A stretch of DNA of 64,000 nucleotides from an uncultured Gammaproteobacteria bacterium (GTDB lineage: Bacteria > Patescibacteriota > Microgenomatia > UBA10105 > UBA927). This document shows, piece after piece, positions 7,986 through 41,737 of this stretch. Under the pieces are notes generated by a model that saw only the letters and a program-made list of their open reading frames with translations, made no database searches and was not told the origin of the DNA. A program made the translations under genes and the position numbers. Position 1 is the stretch's first letter. Each line of letters opens with the position of its first letter. The stretch spans positions 1,117 to 65,116 of the forward strand of contig CAYNJY010000004.1 in assembly GCA_964397755.1 (NCBI GenBank), given 5' to 3'.

Positions 7986-7986
7986 A

Positions 7987-10141: not shown

Positions 10142-10203
10142 AAAAAGACCTCCTTGTCTATTGTACAAGGAGGTGCTTGCACTGAGACACTCTTGTGTCG
10201 AAG

Positions 10204-17411: not shown

Positions 17412-17414
17412 ATC

Positions 17415-20306: not shown

Positions 20307-20337
20307 ACAACAACTGCAAATTTTAAAGTTTGAATTT

Positions 20338-20643: not shown

Positions 20644-20650
20644 AGGGTAA

Positions 20651-21832: not shown

Positions 21833-21908
21833 AATCTATACATCTGCACATGGCAAATCTGCGTCAGTCATGTATTTGCTTATTTGTAGATTTGTTTATT
21901 TGTAGATT

Positions 21909-22952: not shown

Positions 22953-22954
22953 AT

Positions 22955-22985
22955 GTTTCAAATCCCAAATCTCAAATCCCAATGT
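22955..22985. repeat. oligomer tandem repeat (CAAATCC-type x4) at the HMGR/HMGS junction
   Basis: caaatcccaaatctcaaatcccaatg. It spans the HMGR stop and the 20-nt gap before the HMGS start. Confidence 0.8.
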
Positions 22986-24153: not shown

Positions 24154-24235
24154 GGTTTCATGGCTACATTGCTCCATGGTTACATTGAGTTTTTGACAAT
24201 GAAACAATGTGGCAATGGAACAATGTTGTACTAAA
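24150..24235. repeat. CAATGNNN-type octamer repeats at the HMGR start
   Basis: catggtttcatggctacattgctccatggttacattgagtttttgacaatgaaacaatgtggcaatggaacaatgttg. This is near-identical to the copies at 9556-9592 and 46850-46878. Confidence 0.75.
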
Positions 24236-26387: not shown

Positions 26388-26792
26388 ATGGCAACACCAA
26401 CTGGAACACCGATCGGAGAAATTTCAGGACCAGGGCTCGGACCGTTTGGGACAATTACGAAAGAACTCGCCTCTGGTGAAGCCGGCGGTGTTACCGGCCT
26501 CCAAAAAGTCTCAAACATCATCTCGGGCATTATCGGCATCTTAACAGTCGCCGCAGGTATTTGGTTCATGATCCAGTTTCTCATCGGGTCCTTCTACTGG
26601 ATCACCTCTGGTGGAGATAAAGGGAAGCTTCAAGAAGCGAAAAACAGAATCACGCACGCGTTTATCGGCCTCATTATCGTCATTGCCGGCTGGTCGATTA
26701 TCGCCCTCATGGGTAAATTCTTCAATTTTGATATCCTCCTTTCTGAGCCAAGAACGATTATCCGAGGTCTCTACCCTGGAGGAGGTCAGTAA
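26388..26792 (+). CDS. VirB2/TrbC-like T4SS pilin family protein (paralog 5)
   Basis: IIGILTVAAGIWFMIQFLIGSFYWITSGGDKGKLQEAKNRITHAFIGLIIVIAGWSIIALMG. ATG start. A 1-nt gap separates it from the next paralog. Confidence 0.65.
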   Translation: MATPTGTPIGEISGPGLGPFGTITKELASGEAGGVTGLQKVSNIISGIIGILTVAAGIWFMIQFLIGSFYWITSGGDKGKLQEAKNRITHAFIGLIIVIAGWSIIALMGKFFNFDILLSEPRTIIRGLYPGGGQ

Positions 26793-26793
26793 C

Positions 26794-27144
26794 ATGGAAC
26801 GAGCGCTCGCGGTGATTCGAAACCCCATTCTTCCACCCTCCCTTGGCGGCGGCACCGCGCCATCGGTTGAATCGGGTGGCAAGGGGGTGGGGCTTCTTAT
26901 CGGGAACATCATTGGTGGGCTTTTTATCTTTGGGTTTATCATTGCTTTTTTCTACCTTCTCACGGGCGCGTTCTTCTGGATTACGAGTGGCGGCGATAAG
27001 AACGGGTTGGAAAGTGCAAGAAACCGCATCATTCACTCCCTTGTTGGGCTTTTAATCCTCGCATCTGCCTGGGCGATGTTCTCACTGGTTGGGAAGTTTT
27101 TCGGTATAGATCTGCGGAACCTGCCGATCCCATCAATTAAATAA
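26794..27144 (+). CDS. VirB2/TrbC-like T4SS pilin family protein (paralog 6)
   Basis: Start at ATG 26794 (MERALAV...). FIFGFIIAFFYLLTGAFFWITSGGDKNGLESARNRIIHSLVGLLILASAWAMFSLVG. Confidence 0.65.
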   Translation: MERALAVIRNPILPPSLGGGTAPSVESGGKGVGLLIGNIIGGLFIFGFIIAFFYLLTGAFFWITSGGDKNGLESARNRIIHSLVGLLILASAWAMFSLVGKFFGIDLRNLPIPSIK

Positions 27145-27168
27145 ACCCCTATTGACAAGGCTCCTCTT

Positions 27169-27198
27169 GTTGCACAACAATGAATGGTAGCGTATAAT
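27169..27198 (+). promoter_or_regulatory. sigma-70 promoter upstream of pilin paralog 7
   Basis: TTGCAC, an 18-nt spacer, TATAAT, then GAGGAGG Shine-Dalgarno 7 nt before ATG 27224. Confidence 0.5.
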
Positions 27199-27223
27199 CA
27201 TTTTGTTTCACGAGGAGGACTCT

Positions 27224-27556
27224 ATGCATAAAGTGCTCGCACAGGCGAAAATTGAAATCAAGCAACCGTCTTCCATCAGAATCACTGAAATCGGACAACT
27301 CATTAGCGCGGTTGTCGGCACTCTTCTCATCGTTGCAGCCCTGTTGGCGTTCCTCTACCTCATTCTCGGAGGCATCAAGTGGATTACAAGCGGCGGAGAC
27401 AAAGCCGGCATGGAAGAAGCGCGCAATAAAATCACCCACGCAATCGTCGGACTTATTATCGTCGGCGCTGCCTGGGCCATCATGACGCTCATTCAAAACT
27501 TCCTCGGCGTCACGATCATTGGCGGAACCATTGAGTTTCCAAAGCCTTTTTTATAG
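27224..27556 (+). CDS. VirB2/TrbC-like T4SS pilin family protein (paralog 7)
   Basis: LLIVAALLAFLYLILGGIKWITSGGDKAGMEEARNKITHAIVGLIIVGAAWAIMTLI. Start at the SD-preceded ATG 27224. Confidence 0.65.
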   Translation: MHKVLAQAKIEIKQPSSIRITEIGQLISAVVGTLLIVAALLAFLYLILGGIKWITSGGDKAGMEEARNKITHAIVGLIIVGAAWAIMTLIQNFLGVTIIGGTIEFPKPFL

Positions 27557-27639
27557 GCAAAAACACTAAGGGACGTAAAAATCCTCGACGACAGCCGGGG
27601 ATTTTTGTTTTTCAGGAAATACCGTATACTCTACGTACC

Positions 27640-27969
27640 ATGATTCTCCCGCTTCTTTCCGTCATCCGGGCCGCGCCCCTCACGGATACGATCGAGGACG
27701 TTCCAACAATTCTCTCGTTCGAGTCGCTCTTCCGCAATATTGTTGGTGCCGTCGTTGCACTCTCTGGGATTGCGATTTTCATCATGCTCCTCGTCGGGGG
27801 CTTTACGTACCTCTTCTCCGGGGGTGACCAAAAAAAGCTCGAGCAAGCCCGTGGCACTATCACCAATGCTGTCGGCGGGCTTGTCATTATCGTCGCAGCC
27901 TACCTCATCCTTCAGACCATCAAGGCGTTCACCGGCGTTGACGTCACAATCTTTCGCATTCCTCGGTAA
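27640..27969 (+). CDS. VirB2/TrbC-like T4SS pilin family protein (paralog 8)
   Basis: VVALSGIAIFIMLLVGGFTYLFSGGDQKKLEQARGTITNAVGGLVIIVAAYLILQTI. Confidence 0.65.
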   Translation: MILPLLSVIRAAPLTDTIEDVPTILSFESLFRNIVGAVVALSGIAIFIMLLVGGFTYLFSGGDQKKLEQARGTITNAVGGLVIIVAAYLILQTIKAFTGVDVTIFRIPR

Positions 27970-28025: not shown

Positions 28026-29570
28026 ATGAAAAAACACTTTGTTCGTCTTAGTGCGTTCCTCCTCACGCTTCTTGTTGCGATCGGTCTCCTTTCTCGTCCG
28101 ACAATTGTTCGTGCCCAAGGCGCTCCTCCTAATTCTATTCAGAGCTGGTTTTCTCACACGGCGGCTAGCTTTATTCAAGATCTAGAAGCTGCACGCGCCG
28201 GCGGCATTGTGAAAGAAGCTGCAGACAGTTCAAGCATCATTAATCCGCAGCTTGTCCTTGCGTGCGAAATTCTCGGGTGCACCAATGATCTCACGCACCC
28301 GTTTGGGTACCAGCGGAGTCTCCTTGCGTTCGTCGACCGAACGGTTATTGCGATGTACGCAACACCGGTTGCGAGCACCCAGCTTTTCCTCGTTGACCTT
28401 GGAAAAAGCATCGGTCTCCTCCACCCGGCATACGCGCAGGGCGTCGGGTTCTCCGGACTTGAGCCGCTCCTTCCTATATGGAAGGCGTTTCGCAATATCG
28501 CTTACATCCTCCTTGCCATCATCCTCATCGCAGTCGGCTTCATGGTGATGCTGCGGAAGAAGATCGATCCGAAAACGGTGGTCACGGTACAAAATTCCCT
28601 TCCGCGCATCGTCGTTGCCCTTATTCTCATCACCTTCTCCTACGCAATCGTCGGACTCATGATTGACCTCATGTACCTCTCCATGCTGTTTCTCATCACG
28701 ATACTGGTCAACGCAAGCGGCGGGCTTCTCGGGAGTGATACTGCGGCAAAATACCTCGGCGGAGGATTCTGGAGTGCAGTTGGCGCGCTCTTTTCCGGAG
28801 GTATCCGCGCATTTGATGACTTTATCGCGCTTATTCCGAAGGGTGTGAGCGCAACAATTACGATTGTCCCTGGACTTCTCGCTGGCCTCTTTAGCGGAGG
28901 AAAACTGAGCGGCTTCATCACTGGCCTTGCTGCAGCACCCGCACTTTTTTTGCTTCTCATCGCCCTCGTCGTTCTCTTTGGCATAGTGCGGCTCCTGTTC
29001 ATGCTCATCGACGCCTACATCCATATCATTATCGCGCTTTTGACTGCGCCTATTCAACTTCTGTTTGATGCGATCCCGGGGGTCAACGCCTTTGGCGCGT
29101 GGTTCCGAAACCTCCTCTCCCGTCTCATCGTATTCCCGGTGACTGCCGCCATGCTCCTCATCGGCACGATTCTCACGCGCTATGAAAAAAATCCTGTCGG
29201 TATCCCTGGATTCGGGTCACAAAGCCCGGCGCTCTGGGGTCCGCCGTTTCTGACGAGCGATTCCGGCGTCCACGGCATGGCCGGGTTCATCGGCCTTGGC
29301 ATCCTCCTTTCGATCCCGATGATTGTCGCTGGGATTCAAAAAACACTCAAGGGCGAATCGATTATTCCCGGAGGCCCCGGCGCCATCTTCGGCCCAGCCG
29401 GTGCAGCATTCGGACAGCTTCTTCAGGTCGGCTACTATGGAACATTTATTACAAGCGCCTTCCGTCACAAGCAAGCAGAGAAGTCAGCCTACCAGCAGGT
29501 GCGCGAGGGAGCATCAAAAGGCATTGGGGTGCTCACAGGCGGCGGTGGAACGGGCGGTGGCGGACACTAA
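28026..29570 (+). CDS. VirB6/TrbL-like polytopic T4SS membrane protein
   Basis: 514 aa. Signal peptide, a roughly 130 aa N-terminal extracytoplasmic segment, then 7 or more TM helices with Gly-rich loops and a Gly-rich C-terminus. It is immediately downstream of the pilin array. Confidence 0.5.
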   Translation: MKKHFVRLSAFLLTLLVAIGLLSRPTIVRAQGAPPNSIQSWFSHTAASFIQDLEAARAGGIVKEAADSSSIINPQLVLACEILGCTNDLTHPFGYQRSLLAFVDRTVIAMYATPVASTQLFLVDLGKSIGLLHPAYAQGVGFSGLEPLLPIWKAFRNIAYILLAIILIAVGFMVMLRKKIDPKTVVTVQNSLPRIVVALILITFSYAIVGLMIDLMYLSMLFLITILVNASGGLLGSDTAAKYLGGGFWSAVGALFSGGIRAFDDFIALIPKGVSATITIVPGLLAGLFSGGKLSGFITGLAAAPALFLLLIALVVLFGIVRLLFMLIDAYIHIIIALLTAPIQLLFDAIPGVNAFGAWFRNLLSRLIVFPVTAAMLLIGTILTRYEKNPVGIPGFGSQSPALWGPPFLTSDSGVHGMAGFIGLGILLSIPMIVAGIQKTLKGESIIPGGPGAIFGPAGAAFGQLLQVGYYGTFITSAFRHKQAEKSAYQQVREGASKGIGVLTGGGGTGGGGH

Positions 29571-29583
29571 CACCATATTGACG

Positions 29584-32500
29584 TTAATGGCCGCCCTTTT
29601 TCTCTTCTTCTGCAATCGCTTTTTCCGCAGCCACCGCAATCGTCGCAGCCACAAGGACCCACCAATATTTGCGTGCCATTGCAAGCATTCGCCAGTTGAG
29701 CGTGGTTTTGAATTCCTTCCGCAGGTCATGGGCAAGCTCAGGTTTATCCGTGAACAACCCCATGTCCTCCATGGTATTGATGACCTCTTGAATCTTAAAC
29801 TCGTCCCACGCATTACCTTCAGAACCGGTGTAGCGGACTGAATACGAAATCGCCTGAGCGATCGAGTGCGGCCAGTGAGAGACCCGTTTTTCGGCGATGT
29901 TGTGCCACCTGCCATTGGTTAGTTTATTGAGAAGTTTATTGTCCTTCCAGTCCCGAGCATCAATTTCGTGGGCGTGCTTCATAAGCGTAGAAAGCCCGGG
30001 GACCCAACCAACGCTCCGCAGTGACCGGTGGCGGTTGAACTCGATGAACACCCGCGCGAGCTCCTTCATGACCGGTTCAGAAACTGGCGTGCCTACGTAG
30101 TTATTGATCGCGGCGCGAATTTTATAGAAGTGCTTAATCGTCTCTACCGGATCATTCGGCGACATAAGACTCGCTTCTGACATAAAGGCGAGGATCCCAT
30201 CCCTCGTCTCCATTTGATTGCCGATATCGCGAATCCTGCGGTGCATCGCAATCGAACCAAGTTGGAAAAAGTTTACGTCTTTCCAGTTAAAATCTGTTAG
30301 AGACAATGTGAGGGGCAATGCTTCGTTCGCGATCGCTTCGAGTATTGATTTATACTGGATGCCTTCGATCTTCGTATCTCTTCTTTTTGTAAGCTCTTCC
30401 TGCATGTCAACGAGTACGCCGCGGAGTGCCTCAAACCTTCCTTCAGGAACGCCTCTTGTTCGTAAAAATGGCACGATAACTGCGTCGAAATCTTCCTTTT
30501 TTGCAAGATCCATCTTCGCGAGGCTAAACCTCTTATCATCGTACAGCTTCACCTCGGCAAGTGAAAGAGCGCCTTGAAACGACCCCCATTCTTCCTTTGT
30601 AATTCCTCGTTTTTCAAGAATCCTACCCGTATCGTCGCGAAGAAGAGAGAGGAACTTCGATGGATTCCGGCGCATCATGCGCTCGAGAATACCCATCCTT
30701 CTGCCAGGACTTTTTTCTACTAGAAACTGAATGCTAAGCGCCTGATTTTCAAGCTGGGCTCCGTCGGGAAGTTTCTGCATCTCGAGGACTTTATTCCGAA
30801 CTTGCTCTGCCGCGCCTTTGTCTATCCTCCAGGCGCTCCCGTCCATTTGGCCGCCGCCTGAGAGGAATCCCGGTCCCAGAAGTTCGGTGAAGGAGATGCC
30901 GGTATTTTGCTCGGCAAACTCCATAACCTCCATGGCATAGCGCACCTCGGGATGCTTCTCTGTTTTGAATCGCTCCTTCCACTCTTTGGTCTGGGTGACT
31001 TTAAAGCCTCTCGGCGCTTCCTGTTTCTTCGTCATTCTGAGGTTTCTCCGGAGTATTCCGCGGGCGGTTTTGCCCATCTCGCCACCGATATTAAACCTAT
31101 GCGCGAATGCTTCTGGGTTAAAGATCCGAACCAAATCCTCAAACGCCGGCGCGCGCATGACGTCTTTTCCAGACGGCGCCGCAAACTCCGGGTACTCGTA
31201 GCGGGCTGGAGTAGACATGAAGGCGCTGATTGCCGCCATGCGACCGCTTCCGATCATGGCAGTTCGTGCCGCCCAGATAGCCATCCGAACCTTCCATTCT
31301 GGAGGATCCCCGTTTTCTCCCATTACCTCCCCCTTCATTTTACCCTCTGTTTTGAGATACTCGAGCAACCGCTCTCGAACTTCGATATCAATAGGCGACA
31401 GTCCGCGGGTTGCAATGAGTTCCTTGGTGTAACTCTCGTCCAGAGTCGCCTTCCGACGGCTGTAGAGTGTGTAGAGCTTGTTTGCACGCTCGAGCTCCTC
31501 CTGCTCAATCTCAGTAAGCGTCCCTCCTTTGTTGAGTTTTTCCACAAGTGCATCTCTGTATGCTCGTGTTTTTTCAAGAACAAGATACACCTCTGTGTAG
31601 CTGAGGACATCATCGTCCCAGAGGGAAACTCCTTCTGCCGCAAGATCCCGCTTTGCCTCAATCTCAAGCATCATTCTCTGCTCTTCGGTTGTCAGGGTGC
31701 CGTACGTGGTTTCTCCCGGCGTGGCGCCGGGAACTTCCTCTGCGTGTTTCTCTCGTAGAATCTTGAGTAAGTCCTCGCGGCTTATACGCCTCTTTTCATA
31801 GAGGGCTTTATTGGGGTTTTCTATAGCCTTTTTCCCGACTTTTTTCTCCGGTGGAGCTTTGCCGAAGAGCGGATTGTCTACCTCCTCCTTCAAAAATCGT
31901 ATAGCCTCTTGGTACTTGCCTTGCCTTTCGGCAAGCGTTTCGGCAACCACGTGTTCGTAGAGGCTCGCCGCGTAGTTTGAAAATTCGTAGTTTTTATAGA
32001 GGTGGTCAAGATCAGCTCCCGTGAGGAGCGCCATTGCTTTGAGCCGGTCCTTGACGTCGCCGGGGTTGTAGAGAAGCCCTTTGACTGCGTATTCGTAGGT
32101 ACCGCGACCATCCCAGTGCTTCTGGTAGAGCTCGTTGACTAGGTTGTACTCTGCGCCGTACTTCCACCGCAGGTACCGCTTAAACTCTTCAAACTTCTGC
32201 ATCTGTGGCAGGTCCGGGTGCGATTGCTCCTTTCCCAACCGGTAAATTTCGTCAATGAAGTTAAAGTACCAATCTGCCTCTCCGTCCGACCCGTTTCGTA
32301 TGTTTCTCACCTCATCCTCACCGAAATAATCTGAAAAAATATAATCTTCTTTTCCGATTCTCTCTGCCCGTTCGCGTTCAGCCTTCGGCGCTTGGCTGGC
32401 AATGTCGTCCCATCGGACGACGCGCTCCCCGAAGCGCTGTTTCCGACTACTTTCAAGCTGTGTCACGGAAGCATGCGCAGAAATTTCTTGGAGTATCTTG

Positions 32501-33237
32501 AGGCGCTTTCCTATTTCTTCCCGTACTATTGGGTCCTCGAACTGCTTCGCGCCGAGCTCCCGGATGCTTTGGATGTAGTGTTCAAGCTCTTTGGGATTCT
32601 GCGCTGCCTGCGCATCAAGGGTAAGCTCGCGTTTAATCTGCTGTATGCGGCCTCCGACCTCTGTGTCTTTCAATGGATCGATCTTATCGGCATACAGATT
32701 GTCAATCAGACCATCAAGACGGACTATGGGGGTGTCTAAAATTTCGTGGAATTCTGCTCTCAGCGTCGGCTGGTGTTCTGTGATTCTACGCAGGTACCGC
32801 GCAGCTTCCCTCCCTGCGGGGCTATGAATTTTTTCGTCTTCAATAATTGCCTTGAGTTTCTCCCCGACGCGGCGTAGGTACGCGGGGTCTACAAGGCGTG
32901 CCTCGTCAGCAGAAGCCATCTCTTCAACTGCCTCAAAAACGCGGAGGTTCCTTGGCTTCTCGCCGCCTAAAATTTTTCTCGCTGCTTCTGACGAACTTTC
33001 TGCAAGTTTCTTTGTAAGTTCCTCAAGTCTATCCGCAGGGATGTCGTGTTTCTCGGTTTTTCTCTTTGGCTTCTTGGCTTCCTCTTCTCCCCCCGGAGGT
33101 TTCTCGGGCTCTTTGGGTACTTCTGCCCCGGGCACCGCGGCATCTGCCGGCGGCTTCTCCGACGGAGGACCTCCAGCTCCGCCCCCAGCTTTTCCTCCCA
33201 GTGCACCCGGTCCTTTGAGTACTTCTTCACCAGCCAT
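29584..33237 (-). CDS. very large hypothetical protein (about 1217 aa) with disordered Gly/Pro/Glu/Lys-rich N-terminus and C-terminal TM anchor
   Basis: Start assigned to MAGEEVLKGPGALGGKAGGG. The body is predicted largely alpha-helical with no recognisable catalytic motif. The C-terminus is ...RKYWWVLVAATIAVAAEKAIAEEEKKGGH. It is convergent with the VirB6-like gene. Confidence 0.55.
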   Translation of the reverse strand: MAGEEVLKGPGALGGKAGGGAGGPPSEKPPADAAVPGAEVPKEPEKPPGGEEEAKKPKRKTEKHDIPADRLEELTKKLAESSSEAARKILGGEKPRNLRVFEAVEEMASADEARLVDPAYLRRVGEKLKAIIEDEKIHSPAGREAARYLRRITEHQPTLRAEFHEILDTPIVRLDGLIDNLYADKIDPLKDTEVGGRIQQIKRELTLDAQAAQNPKELEHYIQSIRELGAKQFEDPIVREEIGKRLKILQEISAHASVTQLESSRKQRFGERVVRWDDIASQAPKAERERAERIGKEDYIFSDYFGEDEVRNIRNGSDGEADWYFNFIDEIYRLGKEQSHPDLPQMQKFEEFKRYLRWKYGAEYNLVNELYQKHWDGRGTYEYAVKGLLYNPGDVKDRLKAMALLTGADLDHLYKNYEFSNYAASLYEHVVAETLAERQGKYQEAIRFLKEEVDNPLFGKAPPEKKVGKKAIENPNKALYEKRRISREDLLKILREKHAEEVPGATPGETTYGTLTTEEQRMMLEIEAKRDLAAEGVSLWDDDVLSYTEVYLVLEKTRAYRDALVEKLNKGGTLTEIEQEELERANKLYTLYSRRKATLDESYTKELIATRGLSPIDIEVRERLLEYLKTEGKMKGEVMGENGDPPEWKVRMAIWAARTAMIGSGRMAAISAFMSTPARYEYPEFAAPSGKDVMRAPAFEDLVRIFNPEAFAHRFNIGGEMGKTARGILRRNLRMTKKQEAPRGFKVTQTKEWKERFKTEKHPEVRYAMEVMEFAEQNTGISFTELLGPGFLSGGGQMDGSAWRIDKGAAEQVRNKVLEMQKLPDGAQLENQALSIQFLVEKSPGRRMGILERMMRRNPSKFLSLLRDDTGRILEKRGITKEEWGSFQGALSLAEVKLYDDKRFSLAKMDLAKKEDFDAVIVPFLRTRGVPEGRFEALRGVLVDMQEELTKRRDTKIEGIQYKSILEAIANEALPLTLSLTDFNWKDVNFFQLGSIAMHRRIRDIGNQMETRDGILAFMSEASLMSPNDPVETIKHFYKIRAAINNYVGTPVSEPVMKELARVFIEFNRHRSLRSVGWVPGLSTLMKHAHEIDARDWKDNKLLNKLTNGRWHNIAEKRVSHWPHSIAQAISYSVRYTGSEGNAWDEFKIQEVINTMEDMGLFTDKPELAHDLRKEFKTTLNWRMLAMARKYWWVLVAATIAVAAEKAIAEEEKKGGH

Positions 33238-33353
33238 AGAAAAATCGCGCCACTGTGACGCTCTCCTGACTATTCTACTGCCACGAAATGCCGGGCGCAA
33301 GCACAGAATACTAGTTGTCGTCAGCCTGTATTACATCACTTTAGAATCCCCGC

Positions 33354-34130
33354 CTAGGGGAGAAATGGGAGATGGTGTTTGAAGCTGTTCTTTTTTACCC
33401 ACGCTTTAACTTTCTCAACTACCCCATATGGGATTCTCTTCATGACAATCTCCTTCGTGGACTTTCTCTTATCGTAAAGAAGAAAAAGGATTTCATCGGC
33501 TTGCGCGTAGCTAAAGCCAAAGTCGCCTTCATCGGTCTGGCCCTCCCAGAGCCCGGCTGTGGGAGTCTTCTCTACAATTACTTCCGGAACACCTAGATAC
33601 CGTGCCAGTTGGTACACCTGGGTTTTGTAGAGCCCTCTCAGCGGTTCTACGTCGCTTGCCTCATCGCCAAAGCGGGTGTAATAACCGAGCATATGCTCAC
33701 TTTTATTCTCTGTACCGATAACCAGCGCGTGGCGCTTCTTTGCCTGATCAAAAAGGAGGGTCATCCGCACCCGGGCCATGATGTTTCCCCGCCGAACTCG
33801 ATCCATCGCAGGATCGCGACTCACCATCGGGTCAACGAAAGGCGCAATGTTAACCATAACAGCGTTTTCTACTGGAATCTCTAAAGACGTGATCACCGCC
33901 TGCGCGTCCTCCAAACCCTGTGGATTGAGGCCTTTATACGGAAGAAGCACGGGGCAGACGTTTCCCTTTCCGAGCGCACGAACGGCAAGCGCACAGGCCG
34001 TTGCCGAGTCGACGCCACCAGAGAGCGCAATCACCGCGCGAGAAAAACCCTCTTTCTCAAAAGAAGACGATAAAAAAGAAACGAGTTCGAGCATCGTTTT
34101 TTTGGTATCAACCTCCAGTAATTTCTTCAT
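33354..34130 (-). CDS. nadE: NH3-dependent NAD+ synthetase
   Basis: 258 aa with PP-loop SGGVDS (IALSGGVDSATACALAV) and the NadE fold. Confidence 0.85.
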   Translation of the reverse strand: MKKLLEVDTKKTMLELVSFLSSSFEKEGFSRAVIALSGGVDSATACALAVRALGKGNVCPVLLPYKGLNPQGLEDAQAVITSLEIPVENAVMVNIAPFVDPMVSRDPAMDRVRRGNIMARVRMTLLFDQAKKRHALVIGTENKSEHMLGYYTRFGDEASDVEPLRGLYKTQVYQLARYLGVPEVIVEKTPTAGLWEGQTDEGDFGFSYAQADEILFLLYDKRKSTKEIVMKRIPYGVVEKVKAWVKKNSFKHHLPFLP

Positions 34131-34148
34131 AGCTTTTCAATCTGGAAT

Positions 34149-34706
34149 TTACGTGTAGAGTCCGTGTTTCTCGATATACGCCGCTACGTCTTTCGGCACG
34201 AACTGGTCGACGGAAAATCCCCTAGCAACGCGCTCGCGGATCTTTGTGGAGGAGATGTCGGTTGTCATAAGAAGCTCGTGGGTGAGAAGCGTCATGTTGG
34301 GGTACAGGGGCTTATTGGGATAGCCCTGCCGCGGAAACACAACGAAGGGAAGCTTCTTAACAAGCTCCTCCCAGTGGCCCCACTCATGAAATCGCGGCAG
34401 CCAGTCGCTCCCGATGACGAATCGGTATTCGTGTTCTTTCGGCAGATACGGAAGAAGGCTGATGGTACTCCCGTCAAGTTTGTGATCTATCTCGATCGTC
34501 GAGACGCGCGCGCGCGGAAGCGAAAGGAGCCTGACCATTGCTCGGCGATGGGAAGTCTCCGCGACTCCTGGTTTCGGCGGGTTCTGGCCGTAGCTTGGGA
34601 GAAACCACAGTTCGTCAGCGTCAGAGAAATCGAGAACTTGCCGTGCGATGAGGACGTGGCCCAGGTGCGGTGGGTTAAAGACCCCCCCAAAAAGAGCTAG
34701 TTTCAT
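34149..34706 (-). CDS. nadD: nicotinate-nucleotide adenylyltransferase
   Basis: 185 aa with GGVFNPPHLGHVLIA (the HxGH motif) and a C-terminal ISSTKIR motif. Confidence 0.85.
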   Translation of the reverse strand: MKLALFGGVFNPPHLGHVLIARQVLDFSDADELWFLPSYGQNPPKPGVAETSHRRAMVRLLSLPRARVSTIEIDHKLDGSTISLLPYLPKEHEYRFVIGSDWLPRFHEWGHWEELVKKLPFVVFPRQGYPNKPLYPNMTLLTHELLMTTDISSTKIRERVARGFSVDQFVPKDVAAYIEKHGLYT

Positions 34707-34775
34707 ACGTTGCCTATTATAATTCGTGAAAAGAAAAATTGGTAGTTTTCACGATTCTGATGCGCTTTTTTATAC

Positions 34776-34804
34776 TTGATGCCAGCGGTATAACCTTCTA
34801 CAAT
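34776..34804 (+). promoter_or_regulatory. sigma-70 promoter upstream of the T4SS-like operon
   Basis: TTGATG, a 17-nt spacer, TACAAT, about 40 nt upstream of ATG 34844. Confidence 0.4.
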
Positions 34805-34843
34805 ACTTTCTGCGGCTCTCAGTGTATACTTTGCTATCAACGA

Positions 34844-35950
34844 ATGATGAACACGCGACCTATGGAGCAACACCCAGTACCACAAAATGTCACAACGTTC
34901 CAGTTTCGCCTTGTTGGCGACATGACCATCAAGCAGTTTGGGTATCTTGCCGCCGGGGCGATCCTCGCATTCGTAAGTTACAAGTTGCCGCTTCCTTTAT
35001 TCTTTACGTGGCCGCTGACGAGCTTCTTTACCTTTTTAGGCATTGGATTTGCCTTTGTCCCGATCGAAGAGCGACCGATGGACGTCTGGGTTTTTTCATT
35101 TCTCCGAAGTGTCTACAGTCCCACGCAGTACGTGTGGCAACCGCGGCCGGTAGCCCACGTACAGGAACCTCCGAAACCTCCGAACGGTAACGGCCGTAAA
35201 CAGGCCTATCCTTCCCCTGTGTCAAAAGAAGCCTCACTGATGTCAAAGCTTTTTGATGCCTTTGGCATGCCCGCGCGTAAGCCCGAAACTTCCCCACGCG
35301 TTCTGCCGACCCAACAAAAACAGGAGGTCCCCTCGCCTGCCGAGCTTGCGGCTCTTGCCGGTCGCATATCCCAGCTTCAGCATGAGGTTGAAACAAAACA
35401 TAAAACAGAAGATCGGCTCCTTGAGCTTCAATCGCAGCTCACCGCTCTGCTTGCCGACAAGAAGCGGCTTGAGGACAGACTCATGTCTCTCGGGCACGCG
35501 CAAAGCGCACAAACATCACCGTTATCAAAACCAGCCCCTACCTTACCGGTAAACACTCCGGGTGCGACAGTCAAGGTTATTGGTCCGGCACAAGCGCCGC
35601 GTATTGGCATACCAAAACTTACAACTGTGCCAAACGTGCCTTCTGGCATCATCAAAGACAATCAGGGGAACTTTCTCCCCGGAGTCATTGTGACAATTCG
35701 GGATGCGGAGGGGATTCCTCTTCGGGCGCTCAAGACGAATAAACTCGGACAGTTTGCAGCATCCACTCCACTCACCAACGGAACCTACACTGTAGAGGTT
35801 GAGGATCCGCGCGCTCGCTATGTCTTTGACCGCGCGCAGATACCGCTCTCTGGCGCGGTCGTGCCCGCGCTTGAAATAACAGCAATAAGCCAGAAAGAAA
35901 TTTCCCGGCAAAAACTTGCACAGCAAATATTCGGCGACCAAAACATATAG
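34844..35950 (+). CDS. T4SS-associated membrane protein (two-TM N-domain, Pro-rich linker, coiled coil, C-terminal beta-rich domain)
   Basis: Start at ATG 34844. FQFRLVGDMTIKQFGYLAAGAILAFV plus a second TM helix, then a coiled coil (LQHEVETKHKTEDRLLELQSQLTALLADKKRLEDRL), then about 130 aa C-terminal. It is directly upstream of VirB4, the position of VirB3/VirB8-like components. Confidence 0.45.
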   Translation: MMNTRPMEQHPVPQNVTTFQFRLVGDMTIKQFGYLAAGAILAFVSYKLPLPLFFTWPLTSFFTFLGIGFAFVPIEERPMDVWVFSFLRSVYSPTQYVWQPRPVAHVQEPPKPPNGNGRKQAYPSPVSKEASLMSKLFDAFGMPARKPETSPRVLPTQQKQEVPSPAELAALAGRISQLQHEVETKHKTEDRLLELQSQLTALLADKKRLEDRLMSLGHAQSAQTSPLSKPAPTLPVNTPGATVKVIGPAQAPRIGIPKLTTVPNVPSGIIKDNQGNFLPGVIVTIRDAEGIPLRALKTNKLGQFAASTPLTNGTYTVEVEDPRARYVFDRAQIPLSGAVVPALEITAISQKEISRQKLAQQIFGDQNI

Positions 35951-35953
35951 CCC

Positions 35954-36643
35954 ATGACAGACCCAGTCGCTCCCATAAAAGATTCTACGCAAATGTTTAC
36001 AGAAATTGAGGACGTGAAAGACGGCGTCATCCTTTTCATAGATGGTTCAGCTGCAATGATTGTGTCTGTCTCTGCGGTAAACTTTGGCCTGCTCTCAGAG
36101 AGAGAGCAGGACGCGATTATCTATGCATACGCCGGGTTTCTAAATTCCCTCTCGTTCCCAATCCAGATCCTTGTTCGCACCCAGCAGAAAGACGTCACGG
36201 CATACCTTCGCTCCCTTGAGGAGCAACAAGAACGGCAGAAAAATCCGAAGCTTGTGGGGAGTATCAAGGCGTACCGCGCTTTCATCGCAACAACCGTGAA
36301 GGAAAAAGACGTGCTTGATAAAAAATTCTACATCGTGATTCCTTTTTCTAACCTTGAACTCGGCGCTGCGCCGTCACTTCTCTTTGGCACGACGAAGAAA
36401 CGCGGCCTTCCCTACCCGAAACCGTATATCTGGGAAAAGGCAAAAACGGCTCTCTCTCCCAAGAGAGACCACGTCATTCGGATTCTCGCGCGCGTCGGGC
36501 TTCGCTCGACGGCTATGACGGACGAGCTCATCGTCCGACTCTTTTTTGGCATATACAACCCAGGGAGCCCAGCACCCGTCCTTCCTTTAGATACCATCCA
36601 GCCGCACAAGCTCGTGTCGGGCGCACCGACTATGCTGCCGTAG
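35954..36643 (+). CDS. VirB4-like ATPase, N-terminal segment separated by an in-frame TAG
   Basis: 229 aa. It is in the same frame as the downstream ATPase ORF, interrupted only by TAG 36641-36643 followed by 5 sense codons. Confidence 0.5.
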   Translation: MTDPVAPIKDSTQMFTEIEDVKDGVILFIDGSAAMIVSVSAVNFGLLSEREQDAIIYAYAGFLNSLSFPIQILVRTQQKDVTAYLRSLEEQQERQKNPKLVGSIKAYRAFIATTVKEKDVLDKKFYIVIPFSNLELGAAPSLLFGTTKKRGLPYPKPYIWEKAKTALSPKRDHVIRILARVGLRSTAMTDELIVRLFFGIYNPGSPAPVLPLDTIQPHKLVSGAPTMLP

Positions 36644-36658
36644 AAGAACGCCCTGCCT

Positions 36659-38557
36659 ATGAACCTTTCGTCAATGATTCAACAATTTCTCCGGCCCCCT
36701 GCCGCCGATCCTACGATACAAACGCCGCCCGGGCGACTCATGACACCGACTGATATTGTTGCACCGCCAGCAATTGAGGTGGACTTCGATCACCTTAAAA
36801 TCGGCGAGTGGCACTATCGAACCCTCTTTGTGGCGGGGTATCCTCGATTTGTCAGCTCAAATTGGCTTGAACCACTCATCTCCTTTGGTCATACGCTCGA
36901 TATTTCAATGTTTATCTACCCTGCTCGCTCAGGGGAAATCCTCGACAACCTCAAGCGGAAAGTCGGCGAGATGGAAGCGACAATTCAGTCTGATCTCAAA
37001 CGCGGCAAAACCATAGAACCGTCGGTTCAAATTGCACTCGAGGACGCCCTCACACTGCAACAGGACCTCGCCAAAGGAGCGCAGCGCTTCTTTCAATTCG
37101 GCCTCTACATTACCATCCCAGCAAAAACAAAAGAAGATCTCGACAAGACAACGAAGCAGATAGAGGCTACTCTCGGATCCCTCCTTGTCGTAAGCAAGAA
37201 AGCGACGCTACAAATGGAAGAAGGCTTCAAAACGACGCTTCCGATTGGAAAAGACCGGCTCCTCGTGACGCGGAATATGGATACGACCTCCCTTGCGGCC
37301 ACCTTCCCTTTCACGACCTCAGAGCTCTCCGCCAACGAGGGCATCCTTTACGGCATTAACACCGGCAACGACAGCCTCATTGTGTTTGACCGCTTCTCTT
37401 TGGAAAACGCCAACGCGGTCGTCTTCGGCAAATCGGGCTCGGGAAAATCGTACCTGATCAAGCTGGAAATTATGCGCAGCCTCATGTTTGATACCGACGT
37501 CATTGTGATCGACCCTGAAAATGAGTATGAAGCGCTGACCTACGCCCTTGGCGGCGAGTATGTTCGCTTTCATTTCGGGGCGGCCACAAAAATCAACCCG
37601 TTTGATCTCGCCATTCTGACAGGAAAAACGCGAGACGACGAAAACGAGCTCAACCAAAAAATACTCTCTCTCCACGGCTTCTTTCGCGTTGTCATGGGCG
37701 CGCTTACCCCGACAGAGGACGCTCTCCTCGATCGCGCACTCGTGCTTTCATATAAACAGAAAGGGATGACCCCTGATCCTACGACGCAAAAGGCTGAGCC
37801 GCCCCTCATGGAAGATCTCTACAAGGTGCTCGTCGGCATGGAAGATCCCGTCGCACGATCTCTCGCAGACCGGATCGAAAAGTTTGTCAAAGGAAGCTTG
37901 GTTGGCATTTTTGACGAGCAGACAAACATAGAGATACGAAATCAGCTCACTGTTTTCTCTATTCGGGATCTTGAAAATGAGCTCCGCCCCATTGCGATGC
38001 ACCTAATACTCGATTTTATATCGAACAAAATTCGGCGTGACACCAAAACGCGGCTCCTTGTCGTTGACGAGGCGTGGTACCTCATGAAATTTCCAGACTC
38101 TGCACAGTTTCTGAACTCAATCGCAAAGCGAGCGAGAAAATATTTCCTGGGCCTGACAACCATTACACAGGATGTCGAGGATTTTCTCGCGGTCGATCTT
38201 GGAAAAACGATTATTCAAAACAGCAGTCTTCAAATTCTCCTCAAACAGTCGCCTGCGGCAATCGACACGGTCGCAAATCTTTTCTACCTGTCAGAGGGAG
38301 AGAAAAGGCTCCTCTTGTCTGCGGGCGTCGGCCAGGGCCTCTTTTTTGCCGGTCCAGCCCACGCATCGATGCGCGTCGTTGCAAGCCCGGAGGAACACGC
38401 GCTGGCTACCACCCATCCGAAAGACATCTATGAGAATGCGGGGCCGGGAGGAAGGGATATCCCCCATCTCCCAGAGCAACGCCCAGGCGTATCTACCAAT
38501 CGGCCGGTATTCACTGTTGAGCCAGTGCAGAAAGAGACCCCCTCGTCCGATGTGTAA
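36659..38557 (+). CDS. VirB4/TrbE-like T4SS ATPase (C-terminal segment with Walker motifs)
   Basis: Walker A VVFGKSGSGKSY, Walker B RLLVVDEAWYLM. Together with the upstream segment the length is about 860 aa, typical for VirB4. Confidence 0.75.
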   Translation: MNLSSMIQQFLRPPAADPTIQTPPGRLMTPTDIVAPPAIEVDFDHLKIGEWHYRTLFVAGYPRFVSSNWLEPLISFGHTLDISMFIYPARSGEILDNLKRKVGEMEATIQSDLKRGKTIEPSVQIALEDALTLQQDLAKGAQRFFQFGLYITIPAKTKEDLDKTTKQIEATLGSLLVVSKKATLQMEEGFKTTLPIGKDRLLVTRNMDTTSLAATFPFTTSELSANEGILYGINTGNDSLIVFDRFSLENANAVVFGKSGSGKSYLIKLEIMRSLMFDTDVIVIDPENEYEALTYALGGEYVRFHFGAATKINPFDLAILTGKTRDDENELNQKILSLHGFFRVVMGALTPTEDALLDRALVLSYKQKGMTPDPTTQKAEPPLMEDLYKVLVGMEDPVARSLADRIEKFVKGSLVGIFDEQTNIEIRNQLTVFSIRDLENELRPIAMHLILDFISNKIRRDTKTRLLVVDEAWYLMKFPDSAQFLNSIAKRARKYFLGLTTITQDVEDFLAVDLGKTIIQNSSLQILLKQSPAAIDTVANLFYLSEGEKRLLLSAGVGQGLFFAGPAHASMRVVASPEEHALATTHPKDIYENAGPGGRDIPHLPEQRPGVSTNRPVFTVEPVQKETPSSDV

Positions 38558-38576
38558 TTTGTCACGCTAAACACGT

Positions 38577-40805
38577 ATGGAAGCGGAATCACTGCTCCTT
38601 CTTGATTTTCTTGAACGCATAGTCCAAGAGCTAGCGAAGGAGAAGGGCGTCCCGGTAAGCGCAGCCCGGGCATATATCGAGAGCCAACAGTACCCGTTTC
38701 TCCGTCAGTTTCTGTCCGCGAGAAAGGAGGGGCTGATCCAGTCATTTCTCGCGGGGGACCGCGCGTTTACCAATGCGCTTCTTCGGCTTCTCCGCGAGGC
38801 GCGCATGAGCGTCCGTGAGCAACTAACGGCATTCCAAAAAGAAAAACCAGATACGCCACTTTCACCCCAAGAGGTCGTCCAGAGGGCCCTCTACTGGCAG
38901 GAGGCTCAGAAAACTATCGCCCACGCGCAAGAAAACTACCTTCTCGCTGCGCGCGGAAAGCGTAGGCAGCGCGTTCACGATCTTATAGCCCGATGGGTGT
39001 CCGAACAAAAAAACGAAACCCTCTCATCTTCCCTCCCCGACCTTATTCGTCAAGCAGACAGCGCGCTCGGGAAGCAGAATCAATACGGCGATGTTCTCTA
39101 CACGGTAAGCTCGCTCCTTCGCGCGCGTAAAGAAACGCAACCGTTCTTTGAGAAAAATCCAGATCTTTTAAGAGATATCGCCCTCCGGGTTCCTCCGCCT
39201 CGTGAAGAAACCCAGCTTGCCAAATCAGCCTCTATGCTTCAGCTGTCTCTTGGTGCGGCTCTTGTTTCCTCTCCGCTCCTCACCAGGGCGGATTACCTTG
39301 CCGGGCTTCTAGTCCAAGGCGTCGACGTCAGTCGGACTCTCTCCATTGTGAGAGTTCTCGAAGCGCTCGACTCTCCGTTACCGCTTGATGAGCTCCTCTC
39401 CTGCGGCCGCGTGTTTCGGTCTCTCTCAAAAAGCCCAATCCAGAAAACCTTTGCGCCACTTGCTGATTCTGTTTTCCTCCGACTGCCGAGAGGGACCAGG
39501 CGCGCTATCCTCGAGAAGGTGGTTGGTCGGTCGCTTGAACACGCGCTCGATTACCTTCAGCGATCGCTCGGCGCTGCCATTATCAACACCCCGGCATACC
39601 AGTCGCTTCTTGTCACACAAAACACTCTCTTGGGCGGCCCTCCTCTCTCGCTTGCCCTGTCCGGATTCTCCAAGTTTACGGGTGACATTTTTACGACAAT
39701 CTTTCGTGGACCAAACGAGGCTGCCATTCTGTATTTTGAGGCGTCTCGAAGATCTATCGGTCAAGGAAGTCCGCTGGGCCTCTCGCCTCTTCTCTCCGGC
39801 TCCCTTGCACTCTCTTTCCCAACCCTCTATAAAACGTACTTCGATCCTGTATCTGGTCGGTGGGCAGTCGGAACGCAATCGTCTCTTCGGAGGATCGCTG
39901 CTTTTGGCTCGGGCGCAGCTTCGCGCGCAGGGCGTGGCTTGTTCGGTTTCGCATCCCGCATCCTCGGCACAGGGCTCCTTGCGATCGGCGCACTCCTCCA
40001 AGCTGGGTTTGGCGGTCTCATTAGCGCTCTCTCCGGGGGCAAAGTCTCACTCTCTCTTCGTCAAGCCATTCACGGAATTTTTCCTCCAACAAAGCTTACA
40101 GATGACCTTCCGAAGCTTATCTCGGTATCAACGACGATCGCCATAGTCCTTCTTTTTGTCCTCCCGACATTTTTTAACCCCTCGTTTACTTCCTGGCTCA
40201 GCAAAACGAGCGCACTCCTGGTGAGTCTTGCGAGCCCAGAGGCACAGGGGGGGCCAGTCCCAAAATACCCCCAGGCACCCTGTGTTCCAACGAGCCAGGG
40301 ATTGTGCAGGTGGCCAACCGCTGGATGCATCTCTCAGGGACCATACAGCCCGTGGCCAGGATCCCATAGAGGAGGAGCTGCCAACGCGATCGACATCTCG
40401 GCCTCAAGCGGAACGACGGTCACCTCAACAATACAAGGGCGCGTCGAGGCGGTCTATGCTCGGTGTTTTGATAACTCAGGATACCGAGGGAACACCTGTG
40501 GCGGCGGCTACGGCAACTATGTTGTCGTCATATCGAGCGATGGAACTATCCGACTCCTCTACGGTCACCTCTCGCGCCGAGGACTCCCGAGGCCCGGTGC
40601 GCTCGTCTCTCTCGGAGCCCCCCTTGGAAACGTTGATCAAACTGGCAATTCGAGCGGGCCACACCTTCACTACCAACTCGACAGCGCACAACACATAAAC
40701 AGCAGGCTCCCGTTCCCGGTTCCCTCTTGTATCGGAAAGGCCCTTTGTGATGCAGCCATCCGTCTCCAATCGAAAGGAAAATACACATGCAACGTAAAAC
40801 CATAG
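38577..40805 (+). CDS. transmembrane M23-family peptidoglycan endopeptidase with large N-terminal cytoplasmic domain
   Basis: 742 aa. About 480 aa N-terminal domain of unknown function, two TM helices, then an M23 domain (GSHRGGAANAIDIS ... GNSSGPHLHYQLD). Confidence 0.7.
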   Translation: MEAESLLLLDFLERIVQELAKEKGVPVSAARAYIESQQYPFLRQFLSARKEGLIQSFLAGDRAFTNALLRLLREARMSVREQLTAFQKEKPDTPLSPQEVVQRALYWQEAQKTIAHAQENYLLAARGKRRQRVHDLIARWVSEQKNETLSSSLPDLIRQADSALGKQNQYGDVLYTVSSLLRARKETQPFFEKNPDLLRDIALRVPPPREETQLAKSASMLQLSLGAALVSSPLLTRADYLAGLLVQGVDVSRTLSIVRVLEALDSPLPLDELLSCGRVFRSLSKSPIQKTFAPLADSVFLRLPRGTRRAILEKVVGRSLEHALDYLQRSLGAAIINTPAYQSLLVTQNTLLGGPPLSLALSGFSKFTGDIFTTIFRGPNEAAILYFEASRRSIGQGSPLGLSPLLSGSLALSFPTLYKTYFDPVSGRWAVGTQSSLRRIAAFGSGAASRAGRGLFGFASRILGTGLLAIGALLQAGFGGLISALSGGKVSLSLRQAIHGIFPPTKLTDDLPKLISVSTTIAIVLLFVLPTFFNPSFTSWLSKTSALLVSLASPEAQGGPVPKYPQAPCVPTSQGLCRWPTAGCISQGPYSPWPGSHRGGAANAIDISASSGTTVTSTIQGRVEAVYARCFDNSGYRGNTCGGGYGNYVVVISSDGTIRLLYGHLSRRGLPRPGALVSLGAPLGNVDQTGNSSGPHLHYQLDSAQHINSRLPFPVPSCIGKALCDAAIRLQSKGKYTCNVKP

Positions 40806-41737
40806 TACTATTTCTCTTTCTCATCGTCCTCGTCTCGGCGATTGTCGGTGAGTACCTTTCTCGAAAAACAGTAGGCACGAAGCCGCCATCTCAGGAGGAA
40901 CAACGCTCTCTTCCTCGGCCTGTATCGACGGAAGATTTCGTGCCGACAGCGCCTCGCGACGTTACCTTCTCTCCCCTTCCTCAACCACAACAGCCCCCAC
41001 GGGAATACACGACCTTTCACGCCTCCTTCTCTTATAGTCCTGTCGCGCTTACGGAAAGGCTCGCGTCGGACATGGGCCTTGCGCTAACCCAAGCTCAAGA
41101 CGAGGGGGGCCTCAGATTCAGGCAGTGGGAGTCAACTCCCACCTCTCTCTCGCTCATGATCGATGGTGGAATCGCTTCTCTTTCGCTGCAGAACGAGGCA
41201 ACGGGTGCAGGGGCCACGTCAGTAAGCGTCGAGCAGGCGTTCCAATACTTCCTCGTTCGATTTCTCCCTCCAGTTGCTCACGTGCCCAAGGCACTCATAA
41301 AAAGGGAGGAAACCCCGGAGGGCTTTCTTTTCCTTGCCTACCAGTTTCTTATCCGGGACGCGCCGATGCTTCTTGCCAACTATGATCCCGTGTCGCTCGC
41401 GGTCCAGCTAGACGGGAGCGGAGCCGTGCGATCGCTCTCTCTTGTTTTTCCTCCGGACCAAACGGTAGCACAGGAGCAAAGGCTGTCTCTGACGCCCCAA
41501 GAGATCGAAGGTGGCCTCAACGACAATCGCGGGCTCCTCATCTACTCGCTTGATTCGGAAGATAACCCGTACGGATCAACGCCCGTCTTCAACCATGTCT
41601 CGGTGCGGGGAACGACACTCGCCTACCTCCTTAATCCCGACGCAAAGCTCCTTCTTCCTGTTTACCTCATCGATGGTGTTGGCGAATCTGAAGAAAAATT
41701 ACAAGTCGTCCGCTACCTTATCCGGGCAACACACTAG
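40787..41737 (+). CDS. hypothetical membrane-anchored protein (last gene of the T4SS-like operon)
   Basis: 316 aa. N-terminal TM helix (IVLFLFLIVLVSAIVG), then an extracytoplasmic domain. It overlaps the upstream gene by 19 nt. Confidence 0.45.
   Translation: MQRKTIVLFLFLIVLVSAIVGEYLSRKTVGTKPPSQEEQRSLPRPVSTEDFVPTAPRDVTFSPLPQPQQPPREYTTFHASFSYSPVALTERLASDMGLALTQAQDEGGLRFRQWESTPTSLSLMIDGGIASLSLQNEATGAGATSVSVEQAFQYFLVRFLPPVAHVPKALIKREETPEGFLFLAYQFLIRDAPMLLANYDPVSLAVQLDGSGAVRSLSLVFPPDQTVAQEQRLSLTPQEIEGGLNDNRGLLIYSLDSEDNPYGSTPVFNHVSVRGTTLAYLLNPDAKLLLPVYLIDGVGESEEKLQVVRYLIRATH

Follow-up and report, generated by a model that had tools for sequence, protein, structure and literature searches.

Type IV secretion systems (T4SSs) of Patescibacteria are already known. 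As a survey describes them (PMC12102498), they are MPF-FATA-like, contain TrsD, PrgI and arrays of VirB2-like pilins and lack a relaxase; they often lie near dnaA, and VirB6 is hardly recognisable in Microgenomatia. The sole genetically tractable species is Southlakia epibionticum, for which two reports state that the T4SS is essential for epibiotic growth (PMC10633639, PMC12857230), that it has no relaxase and that its pilin arrays are essential (PMC10633639). Two VirB6-like proteins of this organism, SEML1_0011 and SEML1_0013, which comprise ~1000–1090 amino acids (aa) and carry ARM-repeat-like hydrophilic domains, were both scored essential according to a supplement (PMC10633639). The cargo of Patescibacteria T4SSs and the basis of host range are described as unsettled (PMC12102498, PMC12857230), and no mention of a giant component was found in the searched text of the two studies cataloguing these systems. 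Here, we analysed a stretch of 64,000 nucleotides (contig CAYNJY010000004.1; subsequently designated the window), which is a chromosomal region of a genome of Patescibacteria (Candidate Phyla Radiation, CPR) with a T4SS locus that matches the published description. We focus on a gene at 29584..33237 on the minus strand of this locus, whose product of 1217 aa, the giant protein, represents a previously undescribed family, with neither a curated family nor a structural neighbour in the searched libraries. Tentatively, we propose that this protein acts as a lineage-specific, tail-anchored and cytoplasm-facing partner of the T4SS membrane platform.

The open reading frame (ORF) of the giant protein runs without interruption from an ATG at 33237 to a stop codon at 29584-29586 and is the longest of the window, as stated in an initial annotation of this DNA. 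The gene is genuine: it has full-length homologues, which begin with MA.EEL, residues M1, A2, E4, E5 and L6 being invariant or nearly so. As the homologues start at the equivalent of the ATG, a longer, TTG-initiated reading extending to 33300 is unlikely. The sequence AGGAGA is found 24 nt upstream of the start, and a terminator-like hairpin (GCGTCACAGTGGCGC then GATTTTTCT) is located at 33247-33261 on the minus strand, directly before the ATG; it may represent an attenuator, or a terminator for the NAD-synthesis genes located upstream. No RNA element or tRNA was found in the region of the giant gene.

The initial annotation had regarded the protein as an orphan, which turned out to be incorrect. 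A word-indexed search detected 41 homologues of the same length, one of them a copy with 100% identity and the others 42-47% identical, and a profile search of 1.84 billion cluster representatives yielded 104 matches, 82 of which had E-values below 1e-30. Nearly all of the 104 are full-length proteins (~1150-1590 aa), while shorter ones cover the profile partly and may be fragments; as a domain of any other architecture the family was never seen among these matches. Distant members were not reached by the word-indexed search when it was queried with the alignment or a distant member, and a genome scan using a single giant protein as query gave no matches. The named members carry the labels Candidatus Gottesmanbacteria, Microgenomates, Woesebacteria (one case) and “Patescibacteria group”. 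One of them, UniProt A0A0G1GXD1/GenBank KKT38873.1 from Candidatus Gottesmanbacteria, is unannotated, listed as “Uncharacterized protein” and has no function or structure attached; it belongs to a 90%-identity cluster, whose representative P0055 is 30% identical to the window protein and matches the family profile across nearly its full length (E 7e-190). Judged by these taxa, the giant protein constitutes a lineage-restricted and uncharacterised family of Gottesmanbacteria-type ultra-small bacteria. It had been annotated as lacking a recognisable catalytic or binding motif, and indeed there was no significant match in Pfam, NCBIfam, PHROG or PADLOC, the single NCBIfam match reaching 13 bits compared to a cutoff of 269; for seven relatives no family matches are on record. 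An origin from a mobile element or phage was rejected, as tblastn gave no match among the plasmids of PLSDB or the phages of GenBank, and IMG/VR yielded no relative.

The giant gene is linked to the T4SS locus in all relatives that were examined. In the window, its ORF converges on the gene of a 514-aa polytopic membrane protein (28026..29570, plus strand), which ends with GGGGTGGGGH and consists of a signal or transmembrane (TM) segment, a stretch of ~130 aa, about seven more hydrophobic segments above the Kyte-Doolittle (KD) threshold, two of them marginal, and a tail of 75 aa. Since it has no Pfam match, this protein is called VirB6-like by topology and position only. Its stop codon (29568-29570) is separated from that of the giant gene by 13 nt (29571-29583), so that the convergence reported previously is correct, while the reported 14 nt is a coordinate difference. 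The 17 loci from GTDB species all display the same order: the genes for an M23 peptidase protein, VirB4, a TrsD-like protein and PrgI form one operon, from which the genes for the NMN/NaMN adenylyltransferase (NMNAT)-like protein and the giant protein diverge; the latter converges on the VirB6-like gene, which is preceded by the pilin genes, and sigma factor, Yip1 and mevalonate genes follow. Relatives down to 18-27% identity exhibit the same layout and in addition a coupling ATPase, i.e. a type IV coupling protein (T4CP; DUF8128 plus TrwB-type NTPase), heading the operon that has the giant gene at its end. A metagenome scan seeded with this ATPase provided 80 further loci, and the 23 scan loci of this type that extend at least 6 kb downstream all have an ORF of 1066-1297 aa in the slot between NAD synthase/T4CP and the VirB6-like gene. 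The VirB6-like gene is retained in 48 related loci, and a large ORF converges on it in every one of them. In 46 of them, this ORF has at least 1000 aa and lies within 400 nt, whereas the other two copies are truncated or fragmented; the stop-to-stop spacing has a median of 19 nt and ranges from -4 to 211.

The pairing is kept in L025 and L026, where a class-I aminoacyl-tRNA synthetase replaces the upstream genes, and also in L021 and L022 despite inserted toxin-antitoxin genes. The latter code for MazE/PIN, HepT/MNT-like, HTH and YafQ proteins (L021, 1842-2542; L022, 7911-9241 and 15270-15813). They were inserted immediately ahead of the giant gene or in the gap separating the VirB6-like gene from the pilins, which indicates an insertion hot spot. 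Such local plasticity beside the giant gene could also speak for an alternative, in which the protein is envelope-associated or cytoplasmic, has no role in secretion and merely resides in a conserved near-origin block prone to recombination and insertion. In agreement with this idea, which we consider unlikely, the block comprising sigma factor, Yip1, mevalonate, NMNAT, NAD synthase and dnaN/dnaA genes is syntenic across all relatives, and neither homology nor fold ties the giant protein to T4SS components. Moreover, most T4SS loci of Patescibacteria, e.g. those of Saccharimonadia, lack a homologue detectable by the profile search (PMC12102498). This distribution argues for a lineage-specific addition rather than a core component of the T4SS. 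However, the tight convergent pairing with the VirB6-like gene outlives changes of the upstream context, which is not readily explained if the protein is unrelated to secretion. The initial annotation had also considered that the gene might be absent from relatives that keep the T4SS cluster; such absence was found at the class level only, while linkage was kept in every related locus examined.

Comparison of the slot proteins revealed two classes. Class B accounts for 10 of the 23 metagenome slot proteins (loci L027, L031-L033, L044, L051, L057, L062, L066 and L089), in which the hidden Markov model (HMM) of the family, i.e. of class A, matched only at positions ~3-344. Class B proteins comprise 1066-1297 aa, still end with a hydrophobic stretch and a charged tail and have no significant Pfam match; like the long members of the family, they gave no meaningful family matches and carry no domain fusions or extra domains. 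The window protein can accordingly be divided into several parts, all encoded on the minus strand. Residues 1-90 (32968..33237) form a low-complexity N-terminus, which had been noticed initially as a Gly/Pro/Glu/Lys tract; 72% of these residues are E, A, G, K or P, and with conservation values of 0.18-0.27 it is the least conserved part of the family. The following helical N-module (residues 91-334; 32236..32967) is common to both classes, as hhalign aligned class A with class B at query positions 56-334 with a probability of 98.3% (E 2e-14). In the central body (residues 335-933; 30439..32235), hhalign detected no similarity between the classes. This class-specific part contains the most conserved class-A motifs, including AFEDLVRIFNPEAFAHRFNIGGEMG at 698-722 and GISFTELLGPGF at 780-804. 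The C-module (residues 934-1188; 29674..30438) is weakly conserved between the classes (934-1209 against 944-1237, probability 78.6%, E 1.7e-5). Across 63 diverse members, E700, R704, F715, G722, R804, R1000, D1004 and P1080 are invariant besides the start methionine. The conserved core is the C-terminal half of the protein, the top windows of 25 residues being 698-722 and the tail at 1189-1213.

The structure of the giant protein was predicted by AlphaFold after trimming off the low-complexity N-terminus. A first model built from 41 close homologues only had a predicted local distance difference test (pLDDT) value of 62 and gave generic solenoid matches; it was discarded. Addition of ~60 distant members to the alignment, resulting in 83 diverse sequences, raised the pLDDT to 89.5, with a predicted TM-score (pTM) of 0.82. 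In this model, nearly the whole chain is helical, a few hairpins occur and the terminal helix is long, in accordance with the helical body proposed in the initial annotation. Foldseek searches with this model retrieved nothing significant from the PDB (best E 0.028, TM-score at most 0.13) or from BFVD (best E 0.025). Likewise, PDB sequence searches by phmmer with the single sequence and by two profiles gave no credible match; the best hit was a designed helical repeat (E 0.002), which aligned with the low-complexity N-terminus. Internal repeats or a solenoid were rejected, since segment-versus-segment comparisons by hhalign yielded probabilities of at most 7%. A conjugative relaxase was dismissed as well: there was no match to relaxase profiles, and the model is all-alpha rather than alpha/beta.

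The sole hydrophobic peak of the giant protein is located at the C-terminus, in the segment RK-YWWVLVAATIAVAA-EKAIAEEEKKGGH (residues 1189-1217; 29587..29673, minus strand), which bears out the earlier description of a single hydrophobic segment followed by a charged tail. It spans residues 1191-1204, ends 13 residues before the C-terminus and is borderline in hydrophobicity (maximum KD average over 19 residues, KD19, of 1.41). Its uncharged run counts 14 residues, compared to a family range of 14-19 with a median of 17. According to hydropathy analysis, neither the window protein nor any of the 63 relatives has an N-terminal signal peptide or an internal TM segment. The 63 members end with the motif [RK][RK]-YWWV.P.ATIA.A-(3-5 residues)-EEEKK...H, and the N-terminal flank of the hydrophobic segment is net positive in 61 of the 63. 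On these sequence features, the segment fits a predicted tail anchor, with the N-terminus inside and the C-terminus outside. Of note, the tail ranks second among the most conserved 25-aa windows of the family, which favours a sequence-specific contact over a generic anchor; given how short the segment is, and how unusually well its sequence is conserved, it is as likely to mediate a specific helix-helix contact or to serve as a recognition signal as to be a plain anchor. An assignment to VirB6/TrbL proteins, including the extended VirB6 type, was rejected, because the giant protein contains one hydrophobic segment only and has no Pfam match. In the subgroup of the window (loci L001-L015 and L017), the giant and the VirB6-like proteins both end with (Gly)n-His (window positions 29584-29598 and 29541-29570, respectively), and in the other subgroups neither of them does. 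This shared ending, confined to one subgroup, argues against a role of the giant protein outside secretion. The possibility that the Gly-rich/His and Glu/Lys tails are a by-product of a bidirectional terminator hairpin spanning both stops was discarded: the hairpin was no better than those of shuffled sequences (z ~ -1), and the tails are kept even with more than 130 nt between the two genes' ends.

The giant gene is the most variable gene of the T4SS locus and by far the fastest-changing one. With respect to the neighbouring genes, all loci are equally distant from the window, identities amounting to 70-77% for VirB4, 61-73% for 3-hydroxy-3-methylglutaryl-CoA (HMG-CoA) synthase (HMGS) and 34-49% for the VirB6-like protein; for the giant protein, identity is 44-51% in a single subgroup, 32% in L016 and 22-27% elsewhere. 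The slot protein has a mean normalised similarity of 0.19 across loci, compared to 0.33 for the VirB6-like protein, 0.44 for PrgI, 0.64 for a pilin, 0.72 for T4CP and 0.75 for VirB4. Between L016 and L019, VirB4 and T4CP are 94% and HMGS is 96% identical, compared to 27% for the giant protein. Identity along the locus dips lowest at the giant gene (NMNAT 83%, NAD synthase 70%, giant protein 27%, VirB6-like protein 54%, pilins 68-94%). At the nucleotide level, similarity is lost from just upstream of the giant gene to ~770 nt into the VirB6-like gene, whereas the flanks are 76-81% identical. In four genomes whose T4CP is 92-95% identical, the giant copies are 27%, 24% or, by BLASTP, undetectably similar to that of L019, and among genomes with 92-95% identical VirB4 and T4CP the slot protein belongs to a different class in one case. 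The giant proteins of L016 and L028 form a mosaic: identity is 87% over the N-terminal 40 residues, only 13-57% along the body and again 75% at the C-terminal end. However, the rate is not uniformly high, as the giant proteins of L004 and L012 are 83% identical, equal to HMGS; this indicates replacement of alleles rather than a steady fast clock. Divergence of the giant protein correlates with that of the VirB6-like protein (rho 0.65 between distance matrices) and the pilin (rho 0.62), less with VirB4 (rho 0.40) and most weakly with T4CP (rho 0.15). It thus co-varies more with the VirB6-like protein and the pilin than with other neighbours, which is a further point against a function outside secretion. 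Second in variability within the locus is the gene at 38577-40805 for the M23 peptidase protein, which is 23-40% identical to its relatives, mostly in partial alignments, and 52-55% identical between genomes in which VirB4 is 93-95% identical.

A pattern of this kind would also suit a polymorphic cargo, effector or host-specificity factor of the T4SS, which is the main rival explanation and in our view somewhat unlikely. Such a protein would be recognised via its conserved ends and exported without a Sec signal, its C-terminal helix would insert in a host membrane or in the own outer membrane, and the variable central domain would act on the host. Besides the extent of divergence, the nearly unrelated copies and the class switch despite conserved ATPases, the loss of nucleotide similarity across the gene and the L016/L028 mosaic, several further features are compatible with this scenario: the conserved ends with a class-specific middle recall polymorphic effectors, a signal peptide is absent, the acidic/basic C-terminal tail is conserved, and the protein is depleted in cysteine (0 of 1217 residues; 0.10% in the family versus 0.63% in neighbouring genes). 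Where upstream sequence is available, the giant gene follows the T4CP gene on the same strand in nearly all relatives, and genes of coupling proteins often adjoin that of their substrate, as stated in the survey (PMC12102498). Moreover, the hydrophilic domains of extended VirB6 were proposed to protrude or to be translocated into target cells (PMC3556328). However, typical effector repertoires differ from the giant gene, which is strictly single-copy and has a fixed position in every locus, and some related pairs diverge in an ordinary manner, as seen for L004 and L012. A known toxin or enzyme domain or an adjacent immunity-like gene was not found, divergence does not track the T4CP, no T4CP gene is present within the 64 kb of the window, and a precedent for a 1200-aa substrate of a monoderm T4SS was not verified. 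A polymorphic toxin system in the strict sense was rejected, because neither class A nor class B contains a toxin domain and the downstream gene is the convergent VirB6-like gene rather than an immunity gene.

The position of the T4CP gene raises yet another explanation. In the related loci that cover the interval, this gene is flanked by the PrgI-like gene and NMNAT, with the single exception of L018, which has a T4CP but no NMNAT; the T4CPs are 64-95% identical to the reference copy. NMNAT and NAD synthase, the last two enzymes of NAD synthesis, are encoded within the T4SS locus; in most relatives, their genes share one strand with T4CP and the giant gene and are placed between these two. 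Both are missing from L018 and L048, where the T4CP gene directly adjoins the giant gene, and they are inverted in L060. The T4CP of this clade (relatives L016, L018, L019, L022, L023 and others) has no convincing TM segment, unlike canonical VirD4/TrwB. The giant protein could therefore be a membrane tether or adaptor of a coupling ATPase lacking a TM domain, for which TraJ/TraI of pIP501 and the TraG-TraJ pairs provide precedents (PMC7434980), and the gene order in the relatives would agree with this. We regard this as possible but very unlikely. Known partners have ~200 aa and contrast with a hypervariable protein of 1200 aa, the T4CP itself is well conserved and shows the weakest correlation in divergence, and the window keeps the giant gene without a T4CP gene. 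In addition, homologous T4CPs stand alone elsewhere, with no giant neighbour: next to the T4CP homologues of other lineages (52-60% identity) no giant ORF was found, and their contexts are unrelated.

We return to a partner of the T4SS membrane platform as the tentatively favoured role of the giant protein. According to this model, the protein, which has no signal peptide, would be held in the membrane of its own cell by the single C-terminal helix, with the N-terminus inside and the short acidic tail outside. Given such an anchor, the non-repetitive helical body of ~1,100 residues would be cytoplasmic, with the VirB6-like channel protein as its neighbour. Docking on the machine would fall to the conserved ends (N-module, ~56-334; C-module and tail, ~934-1217), while the central ~600 residues would provide an activity specific to the lineage or host, for example in gating or in selecting cargo. 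This central part exists in two or more classes that look unrelated, and it diverges or has been replaced even between close relatives. In functional terms, the protein would correspond to the bulky hydrophilic domains of extended VirB6, but would be a polypeptide of its own with a tail anchor. The model is supported by the fixed full-length architecture of the family, the confident all-alpha structure and the lack of repeats. It gains further support from the convergent pairing in 46 of 48 loci, which survives upstream changes, from divergence tracking that of the VirB6-like protein and the pilin, and from the conserved tail together with the (Gly)n-His ends common to both proteins in one subgroup.

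Several observations weigh against this model. A resident cytoplasmic subunit would not usually vary to such an extreme when its ATPase partners are 92-95% conserved, and the hydrophobic segment with its 14 uncharged residues and a KD19 of 1.41 is short. The T4CP gene, which precedes the giant gene in nearly every relative whose upstream sequence is available (two distant loci headed by a tRNA synthetase are the exceptions), is missing from the window; the corresponding interval (34707-34738) has only 32 nt, and tblastn finds no T4CP in the 64 kb. No sequence similarity to extended VirB6 was detected, as the profile search found relatives of the same architecture only. The block of ~25 kb, including unrelated housekeeping genes such as those for sigma factor, Yip1 and the mevalonate pathway, is syntenic in all relatives, and adjacency and co-variation could therefore reflect linkage or co-transfer rather than function. 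Overall, the gene, its family, architecture, linkage and hypervariability are established by the data, while membrane topology, physical association with the T4SS and role of the giant protein are inferred. The initial annotation had placed the gene with the secretion genes, as a substrate or structural partner. Convergent adjacency in every related locus examined and co-varying divergence strengthen the association with the secretion locus, although block synteny weakens the argument from adjacency; the choice between substrate and partner continues to be a matter of inference.

The genes flanking this pair are in line with a T4SS locus. Upstream of the VirB6-like gene, three small genes each encoding two TM segments are found on the plus strand (26611..27969), at 26611-27144, 27203-27556 and 27640-27969. 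The first of them matches T4SS_pilin of Pfam with an E-value of 6e-4 and 20.2 bits, which is below the cutoff of 26.6 bits, and the NCBIfam family of Mbov_0395 pilin-like proteins with 18.8 bits, below the cutoff of 40 bits. The other two appear pilin-like by topology and homologues, and syntenic small genes in relatives carry precomputed T4SS_pilin matches. Upstream of the giant gene and on the same (minus) strand are the genes for NAD synthase (33354-34130; Pfam NAD_synthase, 1.5e-70) and the NMNAT-like protein (34149-34706; Pfam CTP_transf_like, 4.4e-20), together covering 33354..34706. The divergent T4SS operon (34739..41737, plus strand) comprises, as assigned by Pfam and NCBIfam, genes for PrgI/VirB3-like (34739-35950) and TrsD/TraC-like (35954-36643) proteins, the VirB4 ATPase (36659-38557) and the M23 peptidase protein (38577-40805), followed by an ORF for a protein of 316 aa without assignment (40787-41737); the gene order is the same in relatives. 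dnaN and dnaA are located thereafter at 41852-44572. On the far side, genes for an ECF-type sigma factor and a Yip1 protein are found along with the mevalonate pathway (16710-24207), which includes thiolase, HMG-CoA synthase, HMG-CoA reductase, two GHMP kinases and diphosphomevalonate decarboxylase; together with undecaprenyl-diphosphate synthase, this set keeps its synteny with the T4SS block throughout the relatives. Further genes code for tRNAs, namely a cluster of six (four Ser, two Arg), and for a tmRNA; they are found at 3659-8073 and 10201-10590.

Among described systems, the extended VirB6 proteins, i.e. the VirB6 paralogues of Rickettsiales and SEML1_0011 and SEML1_0013 of S. epibionticum, come close to the arrangement predicted for the giant protein, in which a bulky, helical and hydrophilic portion is tethered to the membrane next to the T4SS channel. 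Their genes likewise adjoin an array of VirB2-like pilins and are reported to be among the most variable genes of T4SS loci between strains (PMC3556328, PMC10633639 supplement, PMC12857230). In contrast, the giant protein is a separate polypeptide with one C-terminal helix rather than a C-terminal extension of a polytopic protein, and a distinct 514-aa polytopic VirB6-like protein is encoded opposite. With the membrane partners of T4CPs (TraI/TraJ of pIP501; TraJ of the R27-type TraG-J pair), the giant protein shares the features of a putatively membrane-anchored protein encoded beside a coupling ATPase in relatives, and the ATPase of this clade lacks a TM segment. However, it is about six times larger, hypervariable, does not co-vary with the T4CP and is not located beside a T4CP gene in the window. 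Polymorphic effectors and toxins are similar in having conserved ends, a class-specific centre and alleles that are apparently replaced between close relatives, but the giant protein differs by lacking a known toxin domain or an immunity gene, by conservation of both ends rather than of the N-terminus only, by a variable part of ~600 helical residues and by being encoded by a single-copy gene at a fixed position.

A more far-reaching version of the cargo idea, which we think rather unlikely, takes the slot protein for the cargo of the T4SS in this lineage that has long been sought, or for the factor determining host specificity. In this case, a polymorphic protein of ~1200 residues with a new fold would be recognised via its conserved terminal modules, reach the host cell or be displayed at it and anchor itself by its tail in the membrane of the host, and the class-switching centre would set the range of exploitable hosts. 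Lists of T4SS genes compiled with known profiles miss lineage-specific components of this kind. The giant protein is a constant tenant of the T4SS locus, has a confident structural model without a solved look-alike, is encoded by the gene that is diversified or replaced fastest and co-varies with the channel-like and pilin genes. This set of properties is expected of a part of the machine, or of a cargo, that meets the host, which makes the giant protein of this large uncultivated lineage a candidate factor in the interaction of these bacteria with their hosts.

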